DNA from: a virus
IMG/VR virus record: IMGVR_UViG_3300025083_000017
Span: 5,293-69,292 of that record
Direction: 5' to 3' (one strand)
DNA: 64,000 bases
Part shown: positions 1,725 through 36,604 of the stretch, one piece after another
Numbering within the stretch: position 1 is the stretch's first letter
How the letters are laid out: each line of letters begins with the position of its first letter
Translations under genes and position numbers: made by a program
Notes under the pieces: model-generated
The model's database searches: none
What the model was told of the DNA's origin: nothing
The model's input: the letters and a program-made list of their open reading frames with translations, nothing else

Positions 1725-2405
1725 TCAGTTACTTTTCTTAGTATCTATGATAGCACCTTTACCATGCTTGGCACGGATTTGTGCTTTTACAATATCCAAT
1801 GCAGAGGGACCACCAACAGGTTTCTTCTTACCAAATGTATTTGGTGTGTTACTAACTGGTTTGTTGTAACGATTGTTGCCATCAACACCACCCCTCTCCA
1901 TTCTTCTATCTCTTAGACCATCTTCAGTTTCTTCCTTTGCAAGTTTGGTTGCAGTGGCGTACATTACAGACTTGGCATCTTTACCATATCTTTCTTCAAA
2001 TCCACTCTTATTCTTTTTCATGCCCTTGACGATATCTTCCTTTTCTTCCTCCTCACCAGGAGTCAAAGTTCTTTCTTTCAACTTACCAGGTTTTCTACCT
2101 TCCTTGGTATCTTTATCATTCTGAAGATTCTCAATATCTCTTTTCTTTTTTTCTTTATCATTATCATCACATTCACAGTCACTTCCTTCATCAATTTCAG
2201 TCACTTCAATTACAAGTGCACCAATCTGTCCGAAGGCTTCTTTCATCACGGGATTGATTGTGATCTTATTATCTACTTTCTTATCACCAATTCTTACTTC
2301 AGACTTACCTTCAGTCTCTGGTTCAGAAGATTCAATATCAACTACTTCACGTAGATCTTCTCTCCAATTTGAATGATTTTTTCTCATGGATTTCAAACTA
2401 GACAC
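1725..2405 (-). CDS. Highly charged putative internal head protein
   Basis: K/E-rich; module EKEDIVKGMKKNKSGFEERYGKDAKSVMYATATKLA; late-type ATAAATA at 2421-2427. Confidence 0.65.
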   Translation of the reverse strand: MSSLKSMRKNHSNWREDLREVVDIESSEPETEGKSEVRIGDKKVDNKITINPVMKEAFGQIGALVIEVTEIDEGSDCECDDNDKEKKKRDIENLQNDKDTKEGRKPGKLKERTLTPGEEEEKEDIVKGMKKNKSGFEERYGKDAKSVMYATATKLAKEETEDGLRDRRMERGGVDGNNRYNKPVSNTPNTFGKKKPVGGPSALDIVKAQIRAKHGKGAIIDTKKSN

Positions 2406-3687
2406 GTTTTCTCTTGTAGGTATTTATGAATTCCCTAATATTTGTCTTAGGACCTTTATATGGTTTGCCACCAGGTTGAAGATTAGTTTTATCACCCTTA
2501 TCAAAACCAGGAGTCATGTCAACGGCATTCTTAAAGTAACCAGTAGTTCCTGTAAGAGTGTTTGGTTTCTTAGGTGTCCTCATCTTACGGTCCATTTTGA
2601 CCTCAGTATACTCAGTCAGGTCTCTAATCCAAGACTTGAACATAATATTATTCTCTGTTACACAGATGAGATAGTTAGTTCCTCTACGAATAACCTTACC
2701 AACCAATCCAGTGTTAAGGTTTTCTACCAATTGATTAATCTTAAAGATATTGCCAGTGACATAATTTTCTCGTAGGTTCTTCCAATCAAATCTAGGTGCA
2801 ATCTCCCAGAGAGACCAACCTTCTTCAACTTTCATTGCCTTACGAACAGTATTCATAATCTGTTTTGCAGCCCTATCATCTACAACATCAGGAACACCAG
2901 TCCTAAACAGTTCAAAATCATTCTCGGCTGCAGCCTTTCTCATCTTCGATGCAGACATTCCAGATACACCTTCTGCATCTTCGTCTCTTTCACCAGCAGA
3001 AATAGTTTCAATATTCTCAAAATCGTAGAGTTCGCCATTATATTTCTGTGCTAGGTTGTCAAACTCCCCAACTCTATCAGAACCAACAACAATCTTTACA
3101 TCAGAGAACCCTTCATTATTAGCCAACTTAAGTGCGTCAAAGATAGTCTTTACACTCTCATCATTGACAATATTGTCTGCATGATCTGGGAAGACCGTCT
3201 TCATCATGTCAGTCTTTTGATTTGGATCAAGTGGATTCTTCTTTGCGTCAAATGATCTGGATGGATAGATTCTCAATTCTCCATCACCTGCAACTTGTTC
3301 TGCAGCATCGAGAAGTTTTAAATGACCAACTGTAGGTGGATTAAATCTACCAAACACTAAGGTAACACTCTCTCCTTCACGTTCTTTACTACCACCTTCT
3401 TCATCTTCACTACCAGATTTCTCACTCGGTTCTTCCTCTGGTGCCTGAGTCTTTTTACCTACCTGTTGTTCAGGTGCTTTATATTGTGCAGTCTTTGTAT
3501 CTTCTCTTTCATTACCACCAGTTTTCTTATCAGTAAATCTAAGTTCACCACCCTCAGTTCTAGCAACAATATTACCAGCTTTATCTACCCAGTTTCCCTG
3601 TCCATCACCAGTTAGACCAAGTTGCTTTGCCCGTGTGGAAGCCTTAGTCTGTCTTGCCTCGGAAAAAAAGTTTAGGAAGCTTTTCAT
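2398..3687 (-). CDS. Cytidylyltransferase-like (HxGH) nucleotidyltransferase, probably virion-packaged
   Basis: FGRFNPPTVGH, VVGSDR and SASKMR motifs; N-terminus MKSFLNFFSE resembles the T4 capsid-targeting sequence; ATAAATA at 3709-3715. Confidence 0.85.
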   Translation of the reverse strand: MKSFLNFFSEARQTKASTRAKQLGLTGDGQGNWVDKAGNIVARTEGGELRFTDKKTGGNEREDTKTAQYKAPEQQVGKKTQAPEEEPSEKSGSEDEEGGSKEREGESVTLVFGRFNPPTVGHLKLLDAAEQVAGDGELRIYPSRSFDAKKNPLDPNQKTDMMKTVFPDHADNIVNDESVKTIFDALKLANNEGFSDVKIVVGSDRVGEFDNLAQKYNGELYDFENIETISAGERDEDAEGVSGMSASKMRKAAAENDFELFRTGVPDVVDDRAAKQIMNTVRKAMKVEEGWSLWEIAPRFDWKNLRENYVTGNIFKINQLVENLNTGLVGKVIRRGTNYLICVTENNIMFKSWIRDLTEYTEVKMDRKMRTPKKPNTLTGTTGYFKNAVDMTPGFDKGDKTNLQPGGKPYKGPKTNIREFINTYKRKRV

Positions 3688-3714
3688 TTCTATCAATATC
3701 CTATGTTTTATTTA

Positions 3715-5850
3715 TTAGAAAAACCTGTTGTTCTTATTATACTTGGCGAGGAAGGATTTTCCCCACACAGTGGCCTCTTCTTGAAGTGTCTTAAACATTT
3801 TACCGAGAGACTTATATTTCCCAATCCTTTCCATATCGACACCACCGTTCTCAACCATATATGAAGCAAAGGCTGCATCACCACCACCACTATCTTCTGC
3901 GTGTCTGATAGCATCACGATATGTACTCTTGATATTCTCCTGTTCTTCTGGCGATTTACCTACCATAGAAAGGAATACTCCACGATAGTAATTGTCAGAA
4001 CCCATGGAATTAGATCTTGGTTTAGATCCCTCAACATTCTTTTGTTTATTGTATCCTCTTGGGAGACCTAGCGCAGTAATGACTTCTTTTGCAATCTTAG
4101 ATTGTGTCTCAATAGAGTTCCAAGCACTTTTAATTTCTTTGTCTCCGCTCTCGTTTGCAACTACACCCAATTCTTTTTTAGCCTTCTTTAGTCCCGCCTC
4201 ATGATTATCCATCATATCCATAAACACTTCAGGTGACATACCCTCAGCAATTTTTCCATCTTCAGTAACAAATGCTCCCATGAGTTCAGATTCTTTTGTT
4301 GGAATAGAATTTCTATAATCAAAAATGTCTGACCGAGTTTCCCAGTAACCGTCATCCTTTTCAGATAGAGGATCGACTTGCTTCTCAAAGAACTCCTCCA
4401 TAGAAAGATCACTCTTTGCTTGGTTCACATTAGCATTCACAAGTACCCAGTTTTTTTCATGTTCTCTTGTTTTAAATTCTTCTAGATCACCTTCTGCCTT
4501 GGATGCTGGACGGATATGTTCAAGATCAATGTTATCAATATTTAAAGGTAGACCAGTGTATGCATCTACTCCGCCCTGTTCAAGATACATTTTCCACACA
4601 TACTTGGCTCTATCAACACCACCATTACCTCGCAGTTCATTTCCATCTTCATCGTAACCTAAGAAATGATTTTTTCCAAGTTCTCCCTTACCTGCCATAC
4701 CCTTTTTACCCCAGGTCTGTTTTAATTTCTTAGGTAAAATGTCAAACGTTGCATTTACTAATTCATCATCTACTTCATTGTCCCTAACACTTCTTACAAA
4801 CTTCTCAACACTCGTCTTATCATCAAAGTCATAGGTATCAAACATTCTATCCTTTGACAATGCGAGTTGTTCTACATCAAACTTACCTAGAGAATTAAGA
4901 CCAGCACCATTGTTTGCCCTACCAGTAAACTTATGTGCATTGGCTACTAGTGCAACAAAAGAGTTTTGCTTCTTTGCATCCATATTTGAGATGAGATCTT
5001 CAAATGGTTTGAATACCTTATCCATATATTTTGCATATTTTGCTTCACTCTTCTTCACTGCATCAGTTGCCTGTTCCCCGGCAAGTCTTCTAAGTTCCAA
5101 CATTGTGTCCTGAAGATCAGCAATGTTGTCTGCATCAGGTTCGTCCTTAAGAAGAGCCTCAACCTCTCCAGTTTTTTCTTTAACTTTATCTTCTTTCGCT
5201 CTATTAAGAGCAGTCTTCATAGTGATTGGTTTAGGAGCACTATCTATCCTCTCCTGCTTTTTATCAGCCTCTTCCTGTTCCTTTCTTGCTGCATCAATCA
5301 ACTTTGACTGTGCATCTATTTCAGCTTGTTCTTCAGCTTCTGCTTCTGCCGCAGCCTGTGCCGCGATAGCCTCTGTCTCTGCATCAGCCTGAGCAATCAT
5401 GTCATCAGCTTGTTGATCAATCTGTGCCTTTCTCTTAGCACTCATTGCAGACTCTCGTCCACGAGCCAACATCTTTTTGACAGTCTGTTTATCACCAGAT
5501 TCTAATGCCTCAGCATCTGGTCCACCAGGAACATTCTTGGCTTGTTGGTCAGTTACTGATGGTATTTCTTCTGGTTTAGGTGCGTCTTTTCTGAAGTCAG
5601 ATAGAGTCTTTTCTTTTTCAGTCTCTGCCTGACCTACAGGAGAGTTTGCCATCCTACTAGTCAAGGGTTCTTGAGATGCAGGGACAAACTTATCACCCTT
5701 TACCTGACCAACATATTGACCTTTGTTATCATAGTATCTACCGAACTTAGATGTTACACCACCAGCACGTTCAGCATCCTTCCTTGCCTGAGACTCATCG
5801 TTCTCGGCAAGGTAGGCATCGGCCTTTCTTAGATATTTAAATACATCCAT
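3715..5850 (-). CDS. Large charged protein with internal HNH nuclease domain
   Basis: YLEQGGVDAYTG..IDLEHIRP..NWVLVNANVNQAKSD is an HNH signature; N-terminal module shared with the neighbouring nucleotidyltransferase; long Ala/Glu helix. Confidence 0.7.
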   Translation of the reverse strand: MDVFKYLRKADAYLAENDESQARKDAERAGGVTSKFGRYYDNKGQYVGQVKGDKFVPASQEPLTSRMANSPVGQAETEKEKTLSDFRKDAPKPEEIPSVTDQQAKNVPGGPDAEALESGDKQTVKKMLARGRESAMSAKRKAQIDQQADDMIAQADAETEAIAAQAAAEAEAEEQAEIDAQSKLIDAARKEQEEADKKQERIDSAPKPITMKTALNRAKEDKVKEKTGEVEALLKDEPDADNIADLQDTMLELRRLAGEQATDAVKKSEAKYAKYMDKVFKPFEDLISNMDAKKQNSFVALVANAHKFTGRANNGAGLNSLGKFDVEQLALSKDRMFDTYDFDDKTSVEKFVRSVRDNEVDDELVNATFDILPKKLKQTWGKKGMAGKGELGKNHFLGYDEDGNELRGNGGVDRAKYVWKMYLEQGGVDAYTGLPLNIDNIDLEHIRPASKAEGDLEEFKTREHEKNWVLVNANVNQAKSDLSMEEFFEKQVDPLSEKDDGYWETRSDIFDYRNSIPTKESELMGAFVTEDGKIAEGMSPEVFMDMMDNHEAGLKKAKKELGVVANESGDKEIKSAWNSIETQSKIAKEVITALGLPRGYNKQKNVEGSKPRSNSMGSDNYYRGVFLSMVGKSPEEQENIKSTYRDAIRHAEDSGGGDAAFASYMVENGGVDMERIGKYKSLGKMFKTLQEEATVWGKSFLAKYNKNNRFF

Positions 5851-8407: not shown

Positions 8408-8626
8408 TTATTCTGTATCTGGTGTGTTATTCTTTTTGTTAAACCCAAATGGACCGGCAGATTCTTCTTCTAGTGCTACCTTTAGTGCAACACCACCGAT
8501 TGCTTCCATACATTTAAGAACGTCTTCTGTCTTAGCACCTTCACCAAGTTCTTTGGCAACGTACCAGTATTTTGGCCAGAATGTTTCTCCTGCCCTTTGA
8601 TAATCATCAAGTGTTAGTAGTTTCAT
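8408..8626 (-). CDS. Hypothetical protein
   Basis: 72 aa; ATGA overlap with the MTase stop. Confidence 0.7.
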   Translation of the reverse strand: MKLLTLDDYQRAGETFWPKYWYVAKELGEGAKTEDVLKCMEAIGGVALKVALEEESAGPFGFNKKNNTPDTE

Positions 8627-9741
8627 AGTTTTGATAATACTTCTTTGTAAATGTTTTCTGCGATGGCTTTCATCATTAGAGGTGGTACCATTCTACCAAC
8701 CCTCTCAGATTGTTGTGAATGAGAACCAGTCAAAATAAAATCATCAGGGAGTGATTGAAGTCTTTTGAGTTCTTGGATTGTGAAACTTCTATCCTCATTC
8801 CAATGAATCAATCCACCACTCGCAGTAAGTGTTGGTGCTGCTTTGAAAAATGATGCTCTCTTGGTATTGAAACAATGACCCTTCTCATGATAATCCATAC
8901 CAGATAGAATCTTTTTAGGATTCTTTGGCATCTTTTTGACTACACTTTGATAGACACTACTGTTCAACATGTGGTCAGTTAGTCTATTTACATCCTCTGG
9001 ATCATTCTCTACACCATCAATAATGTCAGATATGACAGTTTCTTTGGGTGAAGTGGGAGGGAACAATGTAGATACAGTAAGAACATTTAGACCAATCTTA
9101 TCCGCAATATCATTACGAACTGCAATAAAGATTAGTCGTTCTCTACCTTGACCAACACCATGAAAAGATGCTCTCATTACTTTTGATGTAACAAGATAAC
9201 CAATCTCCTCAAATGCATTAGTAATCTTAGCATAATAAGTCTTTGCCTCACCGATTGTCAACCCCTTAACATTCTCAGCAACAATAACCTTGGGTTGAAT
9301 TGATTTGGCAACACGAATATACTCAAAGAACAAGTCTTCAATGTTCTCTACCTTCTTACCATCAGAGTAGTTCTTGGTCTTACCCCAACCATCAGAGTGT
9401 TTAGCACCCTCACCACGACACATAGACCCTGCTACAGAGAATGCTGAACAGGGTGGTGACCCATCAAGAATGTCTAGTTCCCCAGGTTTCAGACCAGTGA
9501 TCTTGAGGAAGTCACCGCCTACCAACTGTTTGATGTCATCAGGAACAATATGAGTTGAGGGATAGTTTGCAGCATAAGTCTTTCGTGCTTCCTCTACAAA
9601 CTCATTAATACACAGAATCTTACCACCAGCAAGACGATAACCAGTAGAGGATCCTCCACCGCCAGCGAATGTAGATATGACAGTGAACTTGGCTTGTGCC
9701 TCACCGTCATAAACATCTTGTAACTTATATGGTAATTTCAT
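8623..9741 (-). CDS. C5-cytosine DNA methyltransferase-fold enzyme, predicted carboxymethyltransferase
   Basis: Motif I FAGGGG, IV GSPPC, VI ENV, VIII QGRER, IX RLQSLPDDF; motif X reads GRMVPP instead of GN(A/S)VPP. Confidence 0.9.
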   Translation of the reverse strand: MKLPYKLQDVYDGEAQAKFTVISTFAGGGGSSTGYRLAGGKILCINEFVEEARKTYAANYPSTHIVPDDIKQLVGGDFLKITGLKPGELDILDGSPPCSAFSVAGSMCRGEGAKHSDGWGKTKNYSDGKKVENIEDLFFEYIRVAKSIQPKVIVAENVKGLTIGEAKTYYAKITNAFEEIGYLVTSKVMRASFHGVGQGRERLIFIAVRNDIADKIGLNVLTVSTLFPPTSPKETVISDIIDGVENDPEDVNRLTDHMLNSSVYQSVVKKMPKNPKKILSGMDYHEKGHCFNTKRASFFKAAPTLTASGGLIHWNEDRSFTIQELKRLQSLPDDFILTGSHSQQSERVGRMVPPLMMKAIAENIYKEVLSKL

Positions 9742-10553
9742 ATTGGTAGAACTCCTTCACCAGTAGATGCATAGTCGGAAGCCAAGTCCATAACTCTCTT
9801 CCTCTTACGATTATTTAGCATTTTATCATCTAATAAAGTTTCAAACAAGTGGTCAATATTAGAACCAAGTTGAAGATTGATATGATCCTTTACATTAGTG
9901 ACTCTATCAAATTCTTTTTTGAATGCATCTCGTACAACTTGTTTCTGTTTGGGTTGATTCAATTCAAACCAATCATACTTGAAGAAGTAATCTCTTACTT
10001 CATCATGGTAAATGTAAGGATGTACTAGTTTTATATCTCTCTCATTTGACAACTGTTCGATCTGACGAAACCCTGTCACATTATGTGGCATAAAATAATT
10101 ACGTCTGAACTGATCAAACTTTTCTTTCGGTTCTTTGAAATGAAGGATAGCTTTCTTACTCACACCATAGTAACCATCAGCACCAATACCAGTTAAAAGA
10201 TATGACTCTTTGATGTGAGGGAAGACATATAAGAAGGGGAAAGTACATTCAAAGTGTGTTTTCTTCCTACAGTCATAGTCTTTGACCAGACGTTTAAAGT
10301 CATCTACAAGATTATCCGTAGGAACAACAATAGTCTCACAGTCCCAACCAAACTCCTTGCTGACTTCTTCAGCTTTGTTTGCATCATAAGACTTATCACC
10401 TTCAAGGTGAAAGGTATATGCAGTAATTTTTTTACCAAGACGATGGGCAGCAAAACCCAAACTCAGACTGTCTACACCTCCAGACAACAAAATCCCCACA
10501 GTATTTGTGGGGACTTTATGAATAATGATATCCTTAAGGATGGTATCAATCAT
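9738..10553 (-). CDS. Asparagine-synthetase-like ATP pyrophosphatase (synthetase domain only)
   Basis: PP-loop LLSGGVDS, LTGIGADGYYG, late HPY motif; lacks an N-terminal Cys glutaminase domain. Confidence 0.8.
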   Translation of the reverse strand: MIDTILKDIIIHKVPTNTVGILLSGGVDSLSLGFAAHRLGKKITAYTFHLEGDKSYDANKAEEVSKEFGWDCETIVVPTDNLVDDFKRLVKDYDCRKKTHFECTFPFLYVFPHIKESYLLTGIGADGYYGVSKKAILHFKEPKEKFDQFRRNYFMPHNVTGFRQIEQLSNERDIKLVHPYIYHDEVRDYFFKYDWFELNQPKQKQVVRDAFKKEFDRVTNVKDHINLQLGSNIDHLFETLLDDKMLNNRKRKRVMDLASDYASTGEGVLPI

Positions 10554-11245
10554 TTAATTGCAATAACTCCAACGAACTGATGATTTCTCCAGAAGATCTG
10601 ACAGTCTTTGAACCCTGCAGTCATCACCATATCTCTCAACTCAGACCATGTATTAGGTTTCAACATATCACGAAGTTGTTTCTCCTTATCCATGATTTGT
10701 TCAGCAGAGAAGGTCTTTCTCTTGTAATCATAATGATTAAAGGTAAGAAGTTCTTGAAAGAATGCATTCTCACACATCAACTTCTCGGCAAAGATGAATG
10801 CACCACCCTCATTGAGACCATTATATATCTTATTGATAGTCTCCTGTCTGGTAGTCTTGGGCATGAACTGTAGGGTGAATAGTGATGTTACCAGAGAACA
10901 GTTCTTGAACTCATAGTTAATAACATTACCACGGACCCATTCTAATATTGCACCAGGGTATTCTTTACGAACCTCGATATGACGTTCTTCAAGATCATCA
11001 TAGAAACTACCAGCAAGTTCTACACCCACATAATGTGCATACTGACGATTAGGGTTGTTACCAATAATCATCTTGGTAAGTTTACCTGTGGAACACCCAA
11101 CATCAACGACTTTAGTATGGTCTTCTACAAAGTATCGTGAGAATGATACAGTGTCCTCTAGAAGGTTTGAGTAACCTCTGATACTATCGTTGATATGATT
11201 ATCAAATCCTTCAGGAGAATGTGCAAAAGAAAAGTCGTATGTCAT
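10550..11245 (-). CDS. cmoA: CmoA-like carboxy-S-adenosylmethionine synthase
   Basis: FDNHINDSIRGY, DVGCSTG, FTLQF, GGAFIFAEK, AGF..FW..F.G.IA.K follow the CmoA family pattern. Confidence 0.8.
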   Translation of the reverse strand: MTYDFSFAHSPEGFDNHINDSIRGYSNLLEDTVSFSRYFVEDHTKVVDVGCSTGKLTKMIIGNNPNRQYAHYVGVELAGSFYDDLEERHIEVRKEYPGAILEWVRGNVINYEFKNCSLVTSLFTLQFMPKTTRQETINKIYNGLNEGGAFIFAEKLMCENAFFQELLTFNHYDYKRKTFSAEQIMDKEKQLRDMLKPNTWSELRDMVMTAGFKDCQIFWRNHQFVGVIAIK

Positions 11246-11246
11246 A

Positions 11247-11432
11247 TTACTTACCGTGTGTTTCGTATTCTAGTGCGTCGTCAATTTTTTTGTCAAGTGT
11301 TGCAATAACATTACGAACATCTACAATTCGTGGTGGAATACATGTGGGGTCAAGAGTATAACCCTTTTGTTCTACAAACAGAGCCTGACGAACTACTGCT
11401 GCTTGTTGTAAATTTAGTTCAAGATTAATCAT
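11247..11432 (-). CDS. Small hypothetical protein
   Basis: 61 aa ORF with strong AGGAGG RBS. Confidence 0.7.
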   Translation of the reverse strand: MINLELNLQQAAVVRQALFVEQKGYTLDPTCIPPRIVDVRNVIATLDKKIDDALEYETHGK

Positions 11433-11962: not shown

Positions 11963-12405
11963 ACATCTCCTTCTTGACGGTTTTCGGAATACTGAACATC
12001 AAATGTTCCTTCTGGATAACGAGCAGAGAGTTTCTCTACATTCATTGAAAGAATTTCATCGAAGTCAGTGTCAAGTGCCATACATGCTTGTGCCATGTAC
12101 CACATAATGTCACCCATCTCACGTTTCATATGAAAGACATTCTCTTCGGTATATGGCTTACCTTGAAGAAACATTTTCTTTACAACTTCAGCAAACTCAC
12201 CAGCCTCAGCAGTCAAACCAAATGCAGCAGTCATCAATTGAGTGACATTACAATCATCTTTGACTTCAAGTTCAGTGAGTCTTTTTGAAAGAGTGGGCCA
12301 ATCAAGACTTGGTTGACTTGTTGTTTGACGAACGAAATCAACATATTTGGTAGGGTCGATGGTCATAGTTTTAGTTGTAATAGTTTCTTGTTGTCGTAGT
12401 TTCAT
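11959..12405 (-). CDS. mazG: MazG-like nucleoside triphosphate pyrophosphohydrolase
   Basis: GLTAEAGEFAEVVKK and REMGDIMWY, NVEKLSARYP motifs; follows gp41 as in cyanomyoviruses. Confidence 0.92.
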   Translation of the reverse strand: MKLRQQETITTKTMTIDPTKYVDFVRQTTSQPSLDWPTLSKRLTELEVKDDCNVTQLMTAAFGLTAEAGEFAEVVKKMFLQGKPYTEENVFHMKREMGDIMWYMAQACMALDTDFDEILSMNVEKLSARYPEGTFDVQYSENRQEGDV

Positions 12406-13778
12406 TAGAACTTGAACCCTTCAAATGTCTTTTTGGGTTTGTCATCATAAGTATACTCCTCATCCTTCTTATTGTCAAGAAGGTCATCCTGTGCTGTTTG
12501 CTCACAATCGTATAGTCTCATCTTGGCACGATCAATACCAATCACAAATCTCTTGTAGACGTTACCATCATTGTATCTGTTCTTCAATTGTTTTACAAGT
12601 ATCTGTCCCAAGGATTCGAGCTCTTCAGTACTAATAAGGGCAAACATAAGATCAGCAGTAGCAGGGAGACCAAAGGACTCAGAAGTATCAGTAAGCTCGA
12701 CATCAGAGCTACCATAACCAGAACGAGTGGTCTGCGTGGCAGATACGATAGGGACGTTTGCTTCGCAAGCCAATCCTCTAAGTTCTTCAGCAATGCTTTT
12801 AATAACTGTATATGAATTAACATTACTACCTCCCCTATACCTAGAGGAAGCACAAATATTGAGGTAATCAATAAAAATAATGTCAGGTCTAAATGATTTC
12901 TTAAGAGCAAGCTCATTGAGAAGTGCGGTAAAGTGTCCACTATGTGCACTCGCGGTTGGGTATTCTTTGATGATAAGTGTTCCTTGAGTCTTTTGTGCGA
13001 GGTTTGTTACCTTCTTCTCAAAAGTCTGTTTAGGAAGTTCACCTATGTCTTGAATATTTACATTCAAAAGATTGGCATCAATCCTTTCCGCAATCTTCTC
13101 TTCAGCCATCTCCATAGTAATATACAATACGTTCTTACCAGTAAGAAGAACAGAAGAAGCCATATGACACATAAACAAAGACTTGCCGACACCAGTCCCA
13201 GCAAGGGCGATGTTGAGTGTCTTATTAGGAAGACCACCTTTTGTAATCTTGTTAAAGAAGTCCAGGTCGAATGGAATCCGATTCTCTTTTCTGTGGTAAG
13301 ACTCATACCGCTCTTCGTAGTCTAGAAGATAATCATGACCAACATGATTATCAAAACTTACAGCAAGTGCATCAGAAAGAATAGAAGGGATTGCATCAGG
13401 AGCTTTATTGTTATCCTGACCGTCTGCAATCTGAATCGATTCCATCAAAGCCAAATAGATGGCTCTTTCTCTACACCACTTTTCAGTGGTATTTAATAAC
13501 CAATCGTGGTCTGTTGGTTCGTTTTCTAGACAACTAATGAGTTGAGTAACTTCCTTGAAGTTAGACTCATTGATGTCACTTCTCTTCTCAATCTCAATAG
13601 AAAGAATCTCTTGAGTTGGAACATCATTATACTGATTTACAAAGTCGGTTATCTCCTCAAATACAATCTTTTGATTAGCATCTTGGAAATAATCTGGTTT
13701 GATGAAGGGAATACATTTTCTTAAGAAGTCTTCATTATGCAATAGATTCTTGAGTACAAGAAATTCAACCTTCTCCAT
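12405..13778 (-). CDS. gp41: Replicative DNA helicase gp41
   Basis: Walker A AGTGVGKS, IDYLNIC, SATQTTR, QLKNRY. Confidence 0.97.
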   Translation of the reverse strand: MEKVEFLVLKNLLHNEDFLRKCIPFIKPDYFQDANQKIVFEEITDFVNQYNDVPTQEILSIEIEKRSDINESNFKEVTQLISCLENEPTDHDWLLNTTEKWCRERAIYLALMESIQIADGQDNNKAPDAIPSILSDALAVSFDNHVGHDYLLDYEERYESYHRKENRIPFDLDFFNKITKGGLPNKTLNIALAGTGVGKSLFMCHMASSVLLTGKNVLYITMEMAEEKIAERIDANLLNVNIQDIGELPKQTFEKKVTNLAQKTQGTLIIKEYPTASAHSGHFTALLNELALKKSFRPDIIFIDYLNICASSRYRGGSNVNSYTVIKSIAEELRGLACEANVPIVSATQTTRSGYGSSDVELTDTSESFGLPATADLMFALISTEELESLGQILVKQLKNRYNDGNVYKRFVIGIDRAKMRLYDCEQTAQDDLLDNKKDEEYTYDDKPKKTFEGFKF

Positions 13779-14772
13779 AACTAAACTCTTTCCGTGCGAT
13801 TTGATCTAATTGTTCCATCACCTCTGGGGTGAAGTATGTCTCTGGGTCTTTCAGGATTGCCTTGGCATAGACTTTCTTACCGTCCATCTCATACCGTCCA
13901 GCAACATTCTTCCACAGTCCACCAAGTTCTCCTAGCTCAAGTAGACCATAATAACGATCAAGACCACGATGATCGTAATAGAGACGAATAGTAACATCCT
14001 TATTCTCCTTGCTTAAACGCGACTTAGCAGTCTTTGCCTTGATAAGGTTTCCAACGACTTCCGTTCCATCCTTTTCTTTCTTCTTACTGAGATAGATGAT
14101 AGTACTAGCAGCGTACTTAAGACCACTACCACCCCCCATTTCTTTAGTAGGAACGTAAGAGCCAATAACATCGTAGGTATGATTGGTAACAATCATTGGA
14201 ATATTTGCTTGACCAAGTTTCAATGTTAACATCCTAAATGCACCTTTAACAAGTTGAGATTTAGTCATGTCTCGAACCTGTTTATCGTTCAATGCATCAG
14301 TTATCTCCTTCTCAGTCGATAACATACCCAAAGAGTCTAACACGAACATACAAGGTTTACGTTCGTCTTCTGGTGTCTTCAAATATATATCAACAGCCTG
14401 TAGTGCCTTCTGTCTAAACTGTTCAATTGTTACGACATTCACAACAACCAGTCGTGTTAAGTCAATCCCACGACTTGAAAGAAGAGATTTGTTAACTGCT
14501 GCCTCAGTATCAAAGTACAGACAGTAACCGTCAGGATTACTGTCCATAAAATTCTTAACCACAGCGAGACTAAAGAAAGTCTTCCCAGTAGAAGACTCAC
14601 CAGCAATGGCAGTAATCTTATTCCCAGAAACACCACCAAATATACTACCTGAGACCAGTGAATTAAGAACGTAAGAACCCGTGTCCACATAGGTTTCCGT
14701 GTCGTCGATGTTTGAGGCAAGTTGGGTATACTCATCACCAATCTCTTTTACAATATCTTTTAAGAAGTCCAT
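13765..14772 (-). CDS. uvsX: RecA-like recombinase UvsX
   Basis: GESSTGKT, LDSLGML, MGGGSGLKYAAS. Confidence 0.96.
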   Translation of the reverse strand: MDFLKDIVKEIGDEYTQLASNIDDTETYVDTGSYVLNSLVSGSIFGGVSGNKITAIAGESSTGKTFFSLAVVKNFMDSNPDGYCLYFDTEAAVNKSLLSSRGIDLTRLVVVNVVTIEQFRQKALQAVDIYLKTPEDERKPCMFVLDSLGMLSTEKEITDALNDKQVRDMTKSQLVKGAFRMLTLKLGQANIPMIVTNHTYDVIGSYVPTKEMGGGSGLKYAASTIIYLSKKKEKDGTEVVGNLIKAKTAKSRLSKENKDVTIRLYYDHRGLDRYYGLLELGELGGLWKNVAGRYEMDGKKVYAKAILKDPETYFTPEVMEQLDQIARKEFSYGEG

Positions 14773-17267
14773 CAGGCAAAAAACGAATCAAGGTTTACAG
14801 TTTTCTCAACATGCCATCCAATAGCATCAAGAATGGTCTTGAGTGGTTCAAGGAAAGCTTTGTTGAATTGTAGGTCATAATCAACGTACTTGTCAAGACC
14901 AATCTCACTAGGGAAATCTGAAATAAACGAGATTACATTTTCCCTAATAATGTTTGGTTTCTTGAGGTAGATAAACTTAATCTTCTCACCATTGTTGATA
15001 TAAGAATACTTATTTGTCAGACCATACTCTTTAATATAATGATTATATAGAAGTGCCCCACGAACATGAATAGGAGAACCCTTACCGTAGATAGTTGAGT
15101 AACTCTTATGTTTCTTTACATCAGAAACTGAACGAGGGAATGCAATCTCTTCTGGTCGCATATTATTAAACTTCTTCCGAGAGTCTTCGATGAAATCAAT
15201 TACCTCATCCTCAGTACCGTTCATCATCAACTTAAGAGCATCCTTAATCATCTTTCTACAGGGTGCAGGTGTAGATGATTTGACTGCCTCGATACCCATA
15301 ATCTTCAGTTTAGGTTCTGAATATCTAACCCCTTCACTGTCCCACACATTGAGAATGTATCTCTTTTTTGCTGTCCAGATTCCACGGTCTGCAATATTCT
15401 CCCGTTTCATCTGCATCTTCTGATCGTATGCATTTACATACGTCGCAAGTTCCTGGTAAGACTCCTCAATAAAAGGTTCCAACTTCTCTTCGCAGATCTT
15501 GTTAAGTATGGACACAACCTCAACCTTATTATCAGACTTACTAGAAAGAAATTTATCAACAATAGGTCCAAAGTTAATATAGATTGAGTCAGTGTCAGAT
15601 GCAATGACATAATCCGTATCTTGAGTTTGTAATAGGTTATTTAGATACCCGTTTACCTTGTTCTCAATCCATCGAATAGAAGTTTGTCCTGAAAGAGTGA
15701 TGGCTTCTGCATTAGCAAGTTTAAAGAAACGAAAGTATTGATTACCAATTGCACCATAACAAGAGTTCAATGCAATCTTACGAGCCATCTGGAAGTTATT
15801 GTATTTTGCGATATCTTTCTCTAGTTGTTTAGTGGGTTTCTTCTCATACTCTTGTTGTGCTTGGAGCATTTTCTTCTTATAAATCTTACGCTCTGCATAC
15901 ATCTTCTCCATGAGTTCAGGCATAAACCCTCTAATGTCCTTACGAAACATTGCACCATTAGCACAGACTGCATAGTCCTTATACATCTCAAAGGTGATCT
16001 CCTTGTTTAAGATCCTATCAATAGTTGCGGAAGGATGTTTCTCTTCAATCAGAGTCTCTGGAGAAATATTGTATTGCATCATCAGGTGAGGGTACAAGGA
16101 GTTAAGGTCAAACGATACCACCCAGTCATAGACACCAGGAATAGGTTGTTTTACATATGCACCTTCATATCTCTTCTCCTTATCACTTCTATCTCTAGGA
16201 GGTACAACAATGTCTCTCTTCTTGAGATAATTATAGATGATGGTGTCCCACATACGAACTTGAAACATAACATCGACATAGTTTACCTTAGCATCATATG
16301 CCATGGTTAATGCCAACTCAATCAGTTTCATCTTGTCTTCCATACGGTCAACAAGTTCTACGTCAACAATGTTATAGTCTACAAATTTTTTCCAGTTACC
16401 ATCATAGAACTCTTTGAACGTATTGAACTCTGAGTGGTCCAACTTCTTCTGACCAAGTTCTACTTCTGCGATATAATCTAATCGATACGACTCCTGTGCT
16501 TTATAAGTAAACTTCTTATAAAGTTCAAGATAATCTAGAGTAGTGACCCCAGCAATATCAAAAGTATTGAACTCTCTACCTTTAATAAAGACAGCTTCTT
16601 GACTTACAATGCCCCAAGGAGAAAGAAGTTTCAACTTCTTGAGTCCCATTATGCGATCGATTCTTCCACATAAGTATGGAATATCATACAGTTTTACGTT
16701 CCAACCAGTTACAATTTCTGGTGGGTTCCGATTCCACCAGGCAATGAATGAGTTGAGCATGTCAATCTCATTTTCATAATGGTAATAAGTTACGTTACTC
16801 TGGGATGGCGTATATCTATGTCTACCCCAGGTTGTAATCTTTTTAGTTGTGTAATCCTGAACAGAGATAGTTAACATCTCTTCAGAGCAAGAATCTGGAT
16901 CAGGAAATCCCTCTTCAGACTTAACCTCAATATCAATCGTTATGAGATTGATCTTTGTAATGTCAAACTTAATCTCATCTTCAGGATAGTTTTCAGAGAT
17001 GTATTGAAATGCATATCGGTCATTACCATAAATCTTGAAATTATCTACGCCATCATACTTCTTGTAGAACTCTCTACAGTCACGAATAGAACCCGGAATA
17101 ATAGGTTCTAGATTATCTCCCTCTAATGTTTTATACTTTGACTCTCGGTTAGAGTTAACAAAGAGAGTTGGTTGGAACTCATCTTTGAACATGACACTCT
17201 TACCATTTTCATAACCACGGACGAGAACATTGTTTCCAACCAATTGAATGTTCGTATAAAACTTCAT
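14772..17267 (-). CDS. gp43: Family B DNA polymerase gp43
   Basis: Exo DIE; pol motifs FDLNSLYP, KIALNSCYG, SDTDS, KKRY. Confidence 0.98.
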   Translation of the reverse strand: MKFYTNIQLVGNNVLVRGYENGKSVMFKDEFQPTLFVNSNRESKYKTLEGDNLEPIIPGSIRDCREFYKKYDGVDNFKIYGNDRYAFQYISENYPEDEIKFDITKINLITIDIEVKSEEGFPDPDSCSEEMLTISVQDYTTKKITTWGRHRYTPSQSNVTYYHYENEIDMLNSFIAWWNRNPPEIVTGWNVKLYDIPYLCGRIDRIMGLKKLKLLSPWGIVSQEAVFIKGREFNTFDIAGVTTLDYLELYKKFTYKAQESYRLDYIAEVELGQKKLDHSEFNTFKEFYDGNWKKFVDYNIVDVELVDRMEDKMKLIELALTMAYDAKVNYVDVMFQVRMWDTIIYNYLKKRDIVVPPRDRSDKEKRYEGAYVKQPIPGVYDWVVSFDLNSLYPHLMMQYNISPETLIEEKHPSATIDRILNKEITFEMYKDYAVCANGAMFRKDIRGFMPELMEKMYAERKIYKKKMLQAQQEYEKKPTKQLEKDIAKYNNFQMARKIALNSCYGAIGNQYFRFFKLANAEAITLSGQTSIRWIENKVNGYLNNLLQTQDTDYVIASDTDSIYINFGPIVDKFLSSKSDNKVEVVSILNKICEEKLEPFIEESYQELATYVNAYDQKMQMKRENIADRGIWTAKKRYILNVWDSEGVRYSEPKLKIMGIEAVKSSTPAPCRKMIKDALKLMMNGTEDEVIDFIEDSRKKFNNMRPEEIAFPRSVSDVKKHKSYSTIYGKGSPIHVRGALLYNHYIKEYGLTNKYSYINNGEKIKFIYLKKPNIIRENVISFISDFPSEIGLDKYVDYDLQFNKAFLEPLKTILDAIGWHVEKTVNLDSFFA

Positions 17268-26912: not shown

Positions 26913-27536
26913 TTATTTTTTTGAACAGTTTATATTGAATACTATTGATCTTCTGTATCCTTCATCGTCAAATGGTTTTACGTAGTGGTACAAATTTCCA
27001 GGGATAACATACAATCTTCCAACGATGGCGTCTACCGTAAATTCAGAATCAAATTCCCTAGAACCATTTGAGGAACATAGAGCGGTATGAGTAAATGCAT
27101 CGGTTCTAACCAATGTCAATCCTTCAGATTTTTTTGGGACCTCAACATAATATACACCGATAAGATCTAGTTTTCCGTGATTATGAATTACATTGTAAGC
27201 ACCGGGTCCATTCTCCAATAACCAGGAAAATATTTTATCGGCAAACAAGTTAGTATGATTTGATTCTAAGAAGTAATTAACAAACTCCTCAGTAAGATCA
27301 AATATTTTTTTTATATGTTGGAACTCAGTTCCAAGAGTAAACTGTCCATCATCATAACTACATGGTTTTGAATGCCAACCATGAACATTGGTTTTTTTTA
27401 TACCAGAATCTATATTCCTAAGATTAATAAAGTCGGATCTGACATCATCAGTATTGATAAGAGAAGTCAAATCAGTAGACACGATAAAACTAGGAAATAT
27501 ATTCGTATCAAGAAGGCAATCTGAAAATTTACTCAT
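26913..27536 (-). CDS. 2OG-Fe(II) oxygenase (TIGR02466-like)
   Basis: GWHS, HNH, GVYY, PGNLYHYV, RRSIVFN. Confidence 0.85.
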   Translation of the reverse strand: MSKFSDCLLDTNIFPSFIVSTDLTSLINTDDVRSDFINLRNIDSGIKKTNVHGWHSKPCSYDDGQFTLGTEFQHIKKIFDLTEEFVNYFLESNHTNLFADKIFSWLLENGPGAYNVIHNHGKLDLIGVYYVEVPKKSEGLTLVRTDAFTHTALCSSNGSREFDSEFTVDAIVGRLYVIPGNLYHYVKPFDDEGYRRSIVFNINCSKK

Positions 27537-36112: not shown

Positions 36113-36604
36113 CTATTTATCAATCAGTTTCCATCTATAACTACCAGCTGTCTTCCTTTTACCACTACATGCCATACTTATCATACTGACAGACACACCC
36201 GCAAAATTTGCAGCATCCTGCAAACTATCAAATACTTCTTCGGTATCAAGGTTTATTACTGATTTGGCCACAGCTTTTGATAGGATTTTTTTCTTCTCTT
36301 CCGAACAGGGGATACCATAACTACCACCGTCTCCACCAAGGGTTGCGTTATACTCTGGTTTAATTTTATCAATCCAATATACCTCCCTAGTACCCTGGTC
36401 TTCTTTACTACACTCCTCTAATATACTCCACTCAAACATATCTCTACCATACTTGATAAGTGCATTAGGGAAAGGGTGGTTATATCCTTTATTATTTGCA
36501 TACCACCAGTGTGTGCTTTCTCTCTGTCTCAAACGTTTATAAGTGGTGCGACCAATATAGGATTTACCATTCTTTTTATTAACGGCCTGGTAAATATATG
36601 CCAT
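36113..36604 (-). mobile_element. Free-standing GIY-YIG homing endonuclease (Seg-like) with C-terminal HTH/NUMOD-type domain
   Basis: YIY..YIG.T, R..E..H, E..WI..PEYN, FDSLQDAA..ISMACSGKRKTAGSYRW; own TATAAATA at 36627-36634. Confidence 0.88.

Follow-up and report, generated by a model that had tools for sequence, protein, structure and literature searches.

Phage DNA hypermodifications that carry amino-acid or amide groups include the N6-carbamoylmethyladenine made by Mom of phage Mu and the glycinyl and putrescinyl thymidines derived from 5-hydroxymethyldeoxyuridine (5-hmdU). The system considered here would share with these a post-replicative decoration of DNA with an amino-acid-like group, presumed to act against restriction. 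It was found in a 64,000 nt stretch of viral DNA (hereafter the window; positions 5,293 to 69,292 of IMG/VR record IMGVR_UViG_3300025083_000017), where an open reading frame (ORF) at 9738-10553 on the minus strand encodes a 271 aa protein related to asparagine synthetases. The closest described system is a three gene cassette characterised in the Synechococcus phage S-B43 (Yang et al., Nat Commun 2025; PMC12783734), in which 5-carboxymethylcytosine (5cxmC) presents a carboxyl handle for amide formation, whereas the hypermodifications of 5-hmdU and 5-hydroxymethyldeoxycytidine (5-hmdC) are built on hydroxyl handles.

According to the main text of that paper, SpCmoA, which was assayed, converts S-adenosylmethionine (SAM) and prephenate into carboxy-SAM (Cx-SAM), and SpCmoX places the carboxymethyl group onto C5 of cytosine in GC motifs; in the crystal structure of SpCmoX (8YF3), Arg350 holds the carboxymethyl group. 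The asparagine synthetase homologue SpCmoY (UniProt A0A514ABJ0; QDH50619.1) then ligates glycine in an ATP-dependent reaction, turning 5cxmC into 5-glycylcarboxymethylcytosine (5gcxmC). When SpCmoY was co-expressed with CmoX in E. coli, where the host's CmoA provides Cx-SAM, the deoxynucleoside 5cxmdC (m/z 286.1) was replaced by 5gcxmdC (m/z 343.1), and in assays of purified SpCmoY no product was formed if glycine, ATP or the enzyme was omitted. In native S-B43 DNA, 5gcxmdC was present and 5cxmdC absent; around 10% of cytosines, or 75% of GC sites, were modified, and such DNA withstands at least some restriction enzymes (HhaI). According to the same text, residues for the carboxylate of glycine are present in the SpCmoY cluster, and other clusters differ (PMC12783734). 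The survey in this paper drew on IMG/VR, which is also the source of the window record. Among the matches listed in a full-text literature search, there was no account of a natural carboxymethylcytosine system besides this one.

The probable window ligase and its S-B43 ortholog

Comparison with these proteins indicates that the window ORF very probably encodes CmoY, an ortholog of the known second-step enzyme of CmoA-CmoX-CmoY DNA hypermodification. The window protein and SpCmoY are both 271 aa long and align without gaps, being identical at 223 positions (82%) and positive at 243 (E 4e-175); searched against S-B43 by tblastn, the window protein gives an E value of 1e-139, far beyond chance. 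The partners are close as well: 198 of 231 CmoA residues are identical to SpCmoA (86%), and the window CmoX aligns over residues 1-372 to residues 1-372 of the SpCmoX structure 8YF3 (E 8.3e-223), with both the SPPC motif and R350 kept. The genes run in the order cmoA-cmoY-cmoX, and both junctions are ATGA overlaps of a stop and a start codon; the order, the overlapping codons and the T4-like cyanomyovirus backbone are all as in S-B43. The cassette and its motifs are as follows.

10550..11245, minus strand: cmoA ortholog, Cx-SAM synthase, 231 aa (TIGR00740; identity to SpCmoA; methyltransferase fold)
9738..10553, minus strand: cmoY ortholog, 271 aa, ATP-dependent amide ligase with no domain other than the asparagine synthetase-type synthetase domain; predicted to join glycine to the 5-carboxymethylcytosine of DNA
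10467..10484, minus strand: CmoY PP-loop SGGVDS, residues 24-29, ATP pyrophosphatase motif
10164..10193, minus strand: CmoY TGIGADGYYG, residues 121-130, aligned to 'SGEGSDEVFG' of 1CT9 and 'TGYGAD' of beta-lactam synthetase
9795..9815, minus strand: CmoY NNRKRKR, residues 247-253, holding the N247-x3-R251-x-R253 signature of the SpCmoY-type subfamily
8623..9741, minus strand: cmoX ortholog, DNA cytosine C5-carboxymethyltransferase, 372 aa (PF00145, 3e-52; 8YF3 match)
9448..9459, minus strand: CmoX SPPC, residues 95-98
8692..8694, minus strand: CmoX Arg350

The differences between the two CmoY proteins are confined to variable positions. In a family alignment of 50 sequences (A1, picked from 120 listed of 517 matches), 71 columns reach 90% conservation or more, and at every one of them the window protein equals SpCmoY; the 48 differences all fall in columns with at most 82% conservation. 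The two proteins also have the R251/R253/D256/D260 signature in common. Because identity is 82%, the conserved positions are identical and so is the gene context, the same substrate and product are expected for the window CmoY, and the comparison strongly favours glycine as its most likely amine.

The only Pfam match of the window CmoY is Asn_synthase (E 8.8e-16), residues 18-188 aligning to profile positions 19-194 of 354, and the NCBIfam AsnB model TIGR01536 is matched over positions 247-450 of 517, its synthetase half, scoring 50.5 bits where the cut-off is 267.1. The protein begins MIDT and its ATG overlaps the stop codon of the upstream gene, hence no upstream extension is possible. No glutaminase (GATase) match to Pfam was found in CmoY or the other window ORFs (64 ORFs scanned), nor any match to PF13537 (GATase_7) in the 69,292 nt viral record, which is only around 36% complete. 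A separate, ammonia-feeding glutaminase was accordingly rejected within this scope.

The initial annotation, made from the letters of the sequence, had already recognised much of this. The 271 aa ORF with SGGVDS and TGxGADxxxG that it described is present, encoded by the minus strand, the plus-strand frame being full of stops, and its view that the protein lacks an N-terminal nucleophile (Ntn) glutaminase agrees with the domain matches and the MIDT start. Its central proposal, a glutaminase-less domain ligating an amine or amino acid onto carboxymethylcytosine in DNA, matches the biochemistry of the 82%-identical SpCmoY. It had also called the amine donor unknown and the final base chemically new; for SpCmoY the amine is glycine, omission of which, like that of ATP or enzyme, abolishes the product, and 5gcxmC was reported in December 2025 (PMC12783734).

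Synthetase fold, active site and proposed mechanism

An AlphaFold2 (AF2) model of the window CmoY, built on A1, has a predicted local distance difference test (pLDDT) score of 93.4 and a predicted template modelling (pTM) score of 0.90. Its top Foldseek matches are beta-lactam synthetase 1mc1 (E 5.9e-11; query-scaled TM-score, TMq, 0.71), carbapenam synthetase 1q19, E. coli AsnB 1ct9 and human ASNS, the alignments covering only the synthetase halves of the targets. The best structural matches are thus to beta-lactam synthetase (1JGT/1MC1) and the carbapenam synthetase CarA (1Q15/1Q19), with E values from 5.9e-11 to 1e-9 and TMq of 0.62-0.71, and beta-lactam synthetase is also the best sequence match in the PDB of a narrow profile (3.5e-6). 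These synthetases derive from asparagine synthetases and make their amide from an acyl-adenylate, with no ammonia derived from glutamine. They are around 500 aa long with a non-functional N-terminal domain, a two-domain architecture that the window CmoY lacks: only the C-terminal halves of these 490-500 residue targets align to it (target-scaled TM-score, TMt, 0.37-0.42), the profile matching residues 230-352 of beta-lactam synthetase and 223-472 of CarA. They further differ in carrying out an intramolecular ring closure, where CmoY joins two molecules, and identity is 16-19%.

The relationship to AsnB (1CT9) and human ASNS (6GQ3/8SUE) can be followed at the level of individual residues. A profile of 122 cluster representatives (A3) matches 1CT9 at 2.6e-15, the PP-loop SGGxDS and the G-x-G-x-D motif aligning to AsnB 234-239 and 347-351: S24-S29 correspond to AsnB S234-S239 (SGGLDS), D126 to D351, and K204 and R208, in a 'K..hR..F' motif, to K429 and R433. 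Among the representatives, conservation reaches 90% or more, up to full invariance, at S24, G26, D28 and S29, and K204 is found in all 122. The fold and carboxylate-adenylation chemistry appear to be shared; the differences are the missing Ntn glutaminase domain, a TIGR01536 score far under the cut-off, and an acyl substrate that would be a DNA base rather than aspartate, with glycine rather than ammonia as the nucleophile. Two AsnB residues are also replaced, E348 by I123 and K449 by H224, the latter alignment lying at the edge of the match; at the E348 position most of the 122 representatives have L, I, W or V, and H224 occurs in 92 of the 122. In AsnB, E348 serves the ammonia-dependent step. 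As the PP-loop and catalytic positions are kept in the alignment with 1CT9, the ATP/pyrophosphate (PPi) machinery of the window CmoY is, on sequence grounds, intact, with positions tied to the ammonia-dependent chemistry of AsnB replaced.

In the mechanism proposed for the cassette, CmoA would make carboxy-SAM from SAM and prephenate, from which CmoX would carboxymethylate C5 of the cytosines at GC sites in the phage DNA. With ATP bound at its PP-loop, CmoY would then adenylate the carboxylate of this modified base with release of PPi; free glycine would attack the acyl-adenylate through its alpha-amino group, AMP would leave, and the resulting amide would be 5gcxmC. The adenylate intermediate is proposed by analogy, both in PMC12783734 and here. 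No glutaminase domain would be needed, because the nucleophile is glycine and not glutamine-derived ammonia. A predicted complex of the window CmoX (alignment A4) with CmoY (A1) had a score of 0.00 and a mark of 0.32, which says nothing either way on binding.

The absence of a glutaminase domain would also suit an enzyme that uses free ammonia to convert 5cxmC into 5-carbamoylmethylcytosine; ammonia-dependent PP-loop amidotransferases exist, and NAD synthetase is among the weak matches. This is nevertheless very unlikely, given the replacement of AsnB E348 by Ile123 and the finding that SpCmoY yields no product without glycine (PMC12783734). The main text of that paper also attributes the use of ammonia to another cluster, that of A0A7T0Q3R0, AMP-forming ligases likewise encoded beside CmoX and CmoA in phages; these do have a glutamine-hydrolysing domain, their use of ammonia being a prediction, as soluble protein was not obtained by the authors. 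The term 'carbamoylmethylcytosine' was found in no paper by the full-text literature search.

Genome context, fusions and relatives

The window has the gene content of a T4-like cyanomyovirus, with a gp23 capsid protein, gp20 portal, sheath, terminase and family-B DNA polymerase, as well as UvsX, UvsY, UvsW, a gp41-type helicase, clamp, clamp loader and RegA; nearly all these T4-like genes lie on the minus strand. At the DNA level the cassette shares 80.7% identity with S-B43, S-B05 and RB11-B, and 82-83% identity is seen for the helicase-UvsX-polymerase block in comparison with RB11-B, RN05-S and S-B05. With the identity of the cassette so close to that of the replication genes, the cassette appears to have diverged in step with the genome, a pattern that fits vertical inheritance within one cyanomyovirus lineage. 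The small flanking ORFs that overlap or abut it, at 8408-8626 (72 aa) and 11247-11432 (61 aa), were considered as further members and rejected, the former being present in 146 cyanophage records and the latter in 24, compared with only three Synechococcus phage records of the collection matched by the window CmoY using tblastn. Hence the flanking ORFs, being far commoner than cmoY, are backbone genes, and the three genes form a discrete cassette within a conserved backbone. Four other accessory genes were observed elsewhere in the window.

2398-3696, minus strand: 432 aa protein with a cytidylyltransferase-like domain
3715-5850, minus strand: 711 aa protein with a weak HNH_4 match
26913-27536, minus strand: 2OG-Fe(II) oxygenase
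36113-36604, minus strand: GIY-YIG endonuclease adjoining the major capsid gene

Natural fusions provide independent support for a ligase that works with a methylase. From a family listing of 150 of the 687 cluster representatives with E <= 1e-3, the eight longest members were scanned, and six of these (P0170, P0174, P0183, P0187, P0205 and P0246) have a CmoY-like domain and a C5 DNA methylase in one polypeptide, either of them coming first (Y-X and X-Y); all five fusions that were aligned retain SPPC and the equivalent of Arg350. The main text of PMC12783734 does not mention fusions of ligase and methylase ('fused' is absent, and 'fusion' is used only for ParBc). These proteins bear on the idea that the window CmoY does not act on DNA at all, and is instead an auxiliary metabolic asparagine synthetase or a PP-loop enzyme modifying RNA or nucleotides, as QueC and TilS do. 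Its relatives are indeed named 'asparagine synthetase B' in databases, and there are weak matches to QueC and LarE, under their cut-offs. Nonetheless this is extremely improbable for a protein that scores only 50.5 of the 267.1 bits set as the cut-off for TIGR01536, is translationally coupled between cmoA and cmoX, has relatives fused to C5 DNA methylases and has an ortholog, SpCmoY, that acts on DNA in vitro (PMC12783734).

Gene neighbourhoods were compared in the best 80 of 458 confirmed loci in IMG/VR. At each of the 18 loci whose identity is 80% or higher, CmoX and/or CmoA is adjacent wherever the contig reaches, both being present in 14, with the other four cut by the contig end. Where the flanks were 1500 nt or longer on each side (49 loci), CmoX and CmoA were both present in 27 and both missing from 22 (L027, L029, L031, L032, L041, L042, L045, L046, L049, L050, L053, L054, L055, L061, L063, L069, L071, L072, L073, L077, L086 and L087). 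All 22 are relatives with 52-56% identity, hence family membership alone is no guarantee of a 5cxmC substrate. Two of them were scanned (L041 and L027), revealing T4 RNase H and DUF6433 as neighbours, with glutaredoxin in L041. No CmoX or CmoA was found elsewhere in five records of such relatives, all of them fragments that are 8-23% complete; the partner genes may lie elsewhere in the genome, or the substrate may be different.

Some related loci have unusual arrangements. The Synechococcus phage RN05-S (PV261924.1; L002, 3001-4840) has cmoX at 3001-4119 and cmoA at 4145-4840, 25 nt apart, with cmoY absent, and it is not among the three Synechococcus phage records matched by tblastn with the window CmoY. 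From this gene content its DNA is predicted to carry bare 5cxmC, which would make it a natural cmoY-minus comparison. In L015, a 443 aa ORF lies between cmoA and cmoY (2589-3920), with weak GmrSD_N-like and HNH matches that are both under Pfam cut-offs; 1-1.4 kb separates the two genes in this locus and in L012, L013 and L017, all relatives with 86-89% identity. The insert may represent a mobile endonuclease; alternatively, it may be the ParB-like protein to which the main text of PMC12783734 refers.

A more distant arrangement is found in the Erwinia jumbo phage pEa_SNUABM_1 (MZ443776.1; L003/L004/L007), in stretches at 12234-17111 and approximately 32.6-34.8 kb. One row of genes encodes a CmoA-like protein (34% identity), a 420 aa unknown protein, DUF1611, an Ala_racemase_N-like protein and a CmoY-like ligase (35% identity) that keeps an RKRVMD motif. 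A 717 aa C5 methylase, in which the Arg350 equivalent is kept, is encoded around 16 kb from this row and appears to have an intein-like insert directly after SPPC. The products of the racemase-like and DUF1611 genes might provide the ligase with another amino acid.

The C-terminal motif and the choice of amine

The basic stretch NNRKRKR had been described in the initial annotation as the C terminus of the protein, where it might bind DNA. It is present at residues 247-253, near the C terminus rather than at it, as a further 18 residues follow. N247, R251 and R253 are invariant in the 50 sequences of A1. In the 122 representatives, positions 251, 253, 256 and 260 divide the family: 46, the window CmoY included, have R-R-(D/E)-D, and 50 have Ser253, usually with Gly256, unlike the catalytic positions, which are conserved throughout. 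Such a split amid conserved catalytic positions is the pattern expected of a specificity motif, and it fits the statement in the main text of PMC12783734 on the residues of the SpCmoY cluster that serve the glycine carboxylate. Judged by these alignments, the R251/R253 motif appears to have a specific function and not to be just a generic basic tail, and the two arginines are possibly a clamp for the carboxylate of the amino acid; alternatively, the basic stretch may bind the DNA backbone. Positions 251, 253, 256 and 260 are therefore candidate determinants of the ligated amine across the family.

There are several points that weigh against reading the window CmoY as a glycine ligase acting on 5cxmC, in addition to the 22 loci without either partner described above. 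The window belongs to an uncultivated IMG/VR contig, approximately 36% complete, and the reaction was shown for the S-B43 ortholog of its CmoY. Within the conserved C-terminal motif, position 250 is K in the window and G in S-B43 (NNRGRKR), in an A1 column that is variable, its top residue reaching 32%. The window CmoA matches TIGR00740 at 1.7e-31, and its 109.7 bits are under the equivalog cut-off of 193.3. Finally, glycine was the only amine supplied in vitro, and the main text of PMC12783734 has no panel of alternative amines; the argument for strict glycine specificity is therefore that one product alone was seen, in E. coli as well as in native phage DNA.

The last of these points leaves room for the same ligase chemistry on 5cxmC-DNA with another amine or amino acid preferred, such as alanine, serine or a polyamine, in which case the base would be an undescribed one, and the 48 substitutions relative to SpCmoY include K250 for G250 directly beside R251. 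This is unlikely, however, as none of the 48 falls at a family position with at least 90% conservation, the R251/R253/D256/D260 signature is the same in SpCmoY, and only the glycine adduct was reported from E. coli and native S-B43 DNA (PMC12783734). There is similarly a slim chance that either the window CmoY or close relatives differing around R251/R253 accept an amine other than glycine, giving an undescribed amide-linked cytosine adduct. As a corollary, the contrast between N-x3-R-x-R-x2-D-x3-D (46 of 122 representatives) and x-S-x2-G (S253 in 50 of 122) may amount to a family-wide amine code.

Since the pathway, its product and the structure of the partner enzyme were already published in 2025, and the window CmoY is an ortholog of a described enzyme, the discovery value of the locus is low. 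If glycine ligation by the window CmoY is correct, this would be one more marine cyanomyovirus with 5gcxmC at GC sites. Around 13% of the window cytosines are in GpC (2 x 1616 of roughly 24,340 on both strands), which fits the S-B43 figure of approximately 10% of cytosines modified, equivalent to 75% of GC sites (PMC12783734). Across the window (1-64000), GpC is under-represented, with an observed/expected ratio of 0.71 (1616 sites per strand), the ratio for CpG being 0.57. DNA carrying 5gcxmC would behave oddly in sequencing and cloning.

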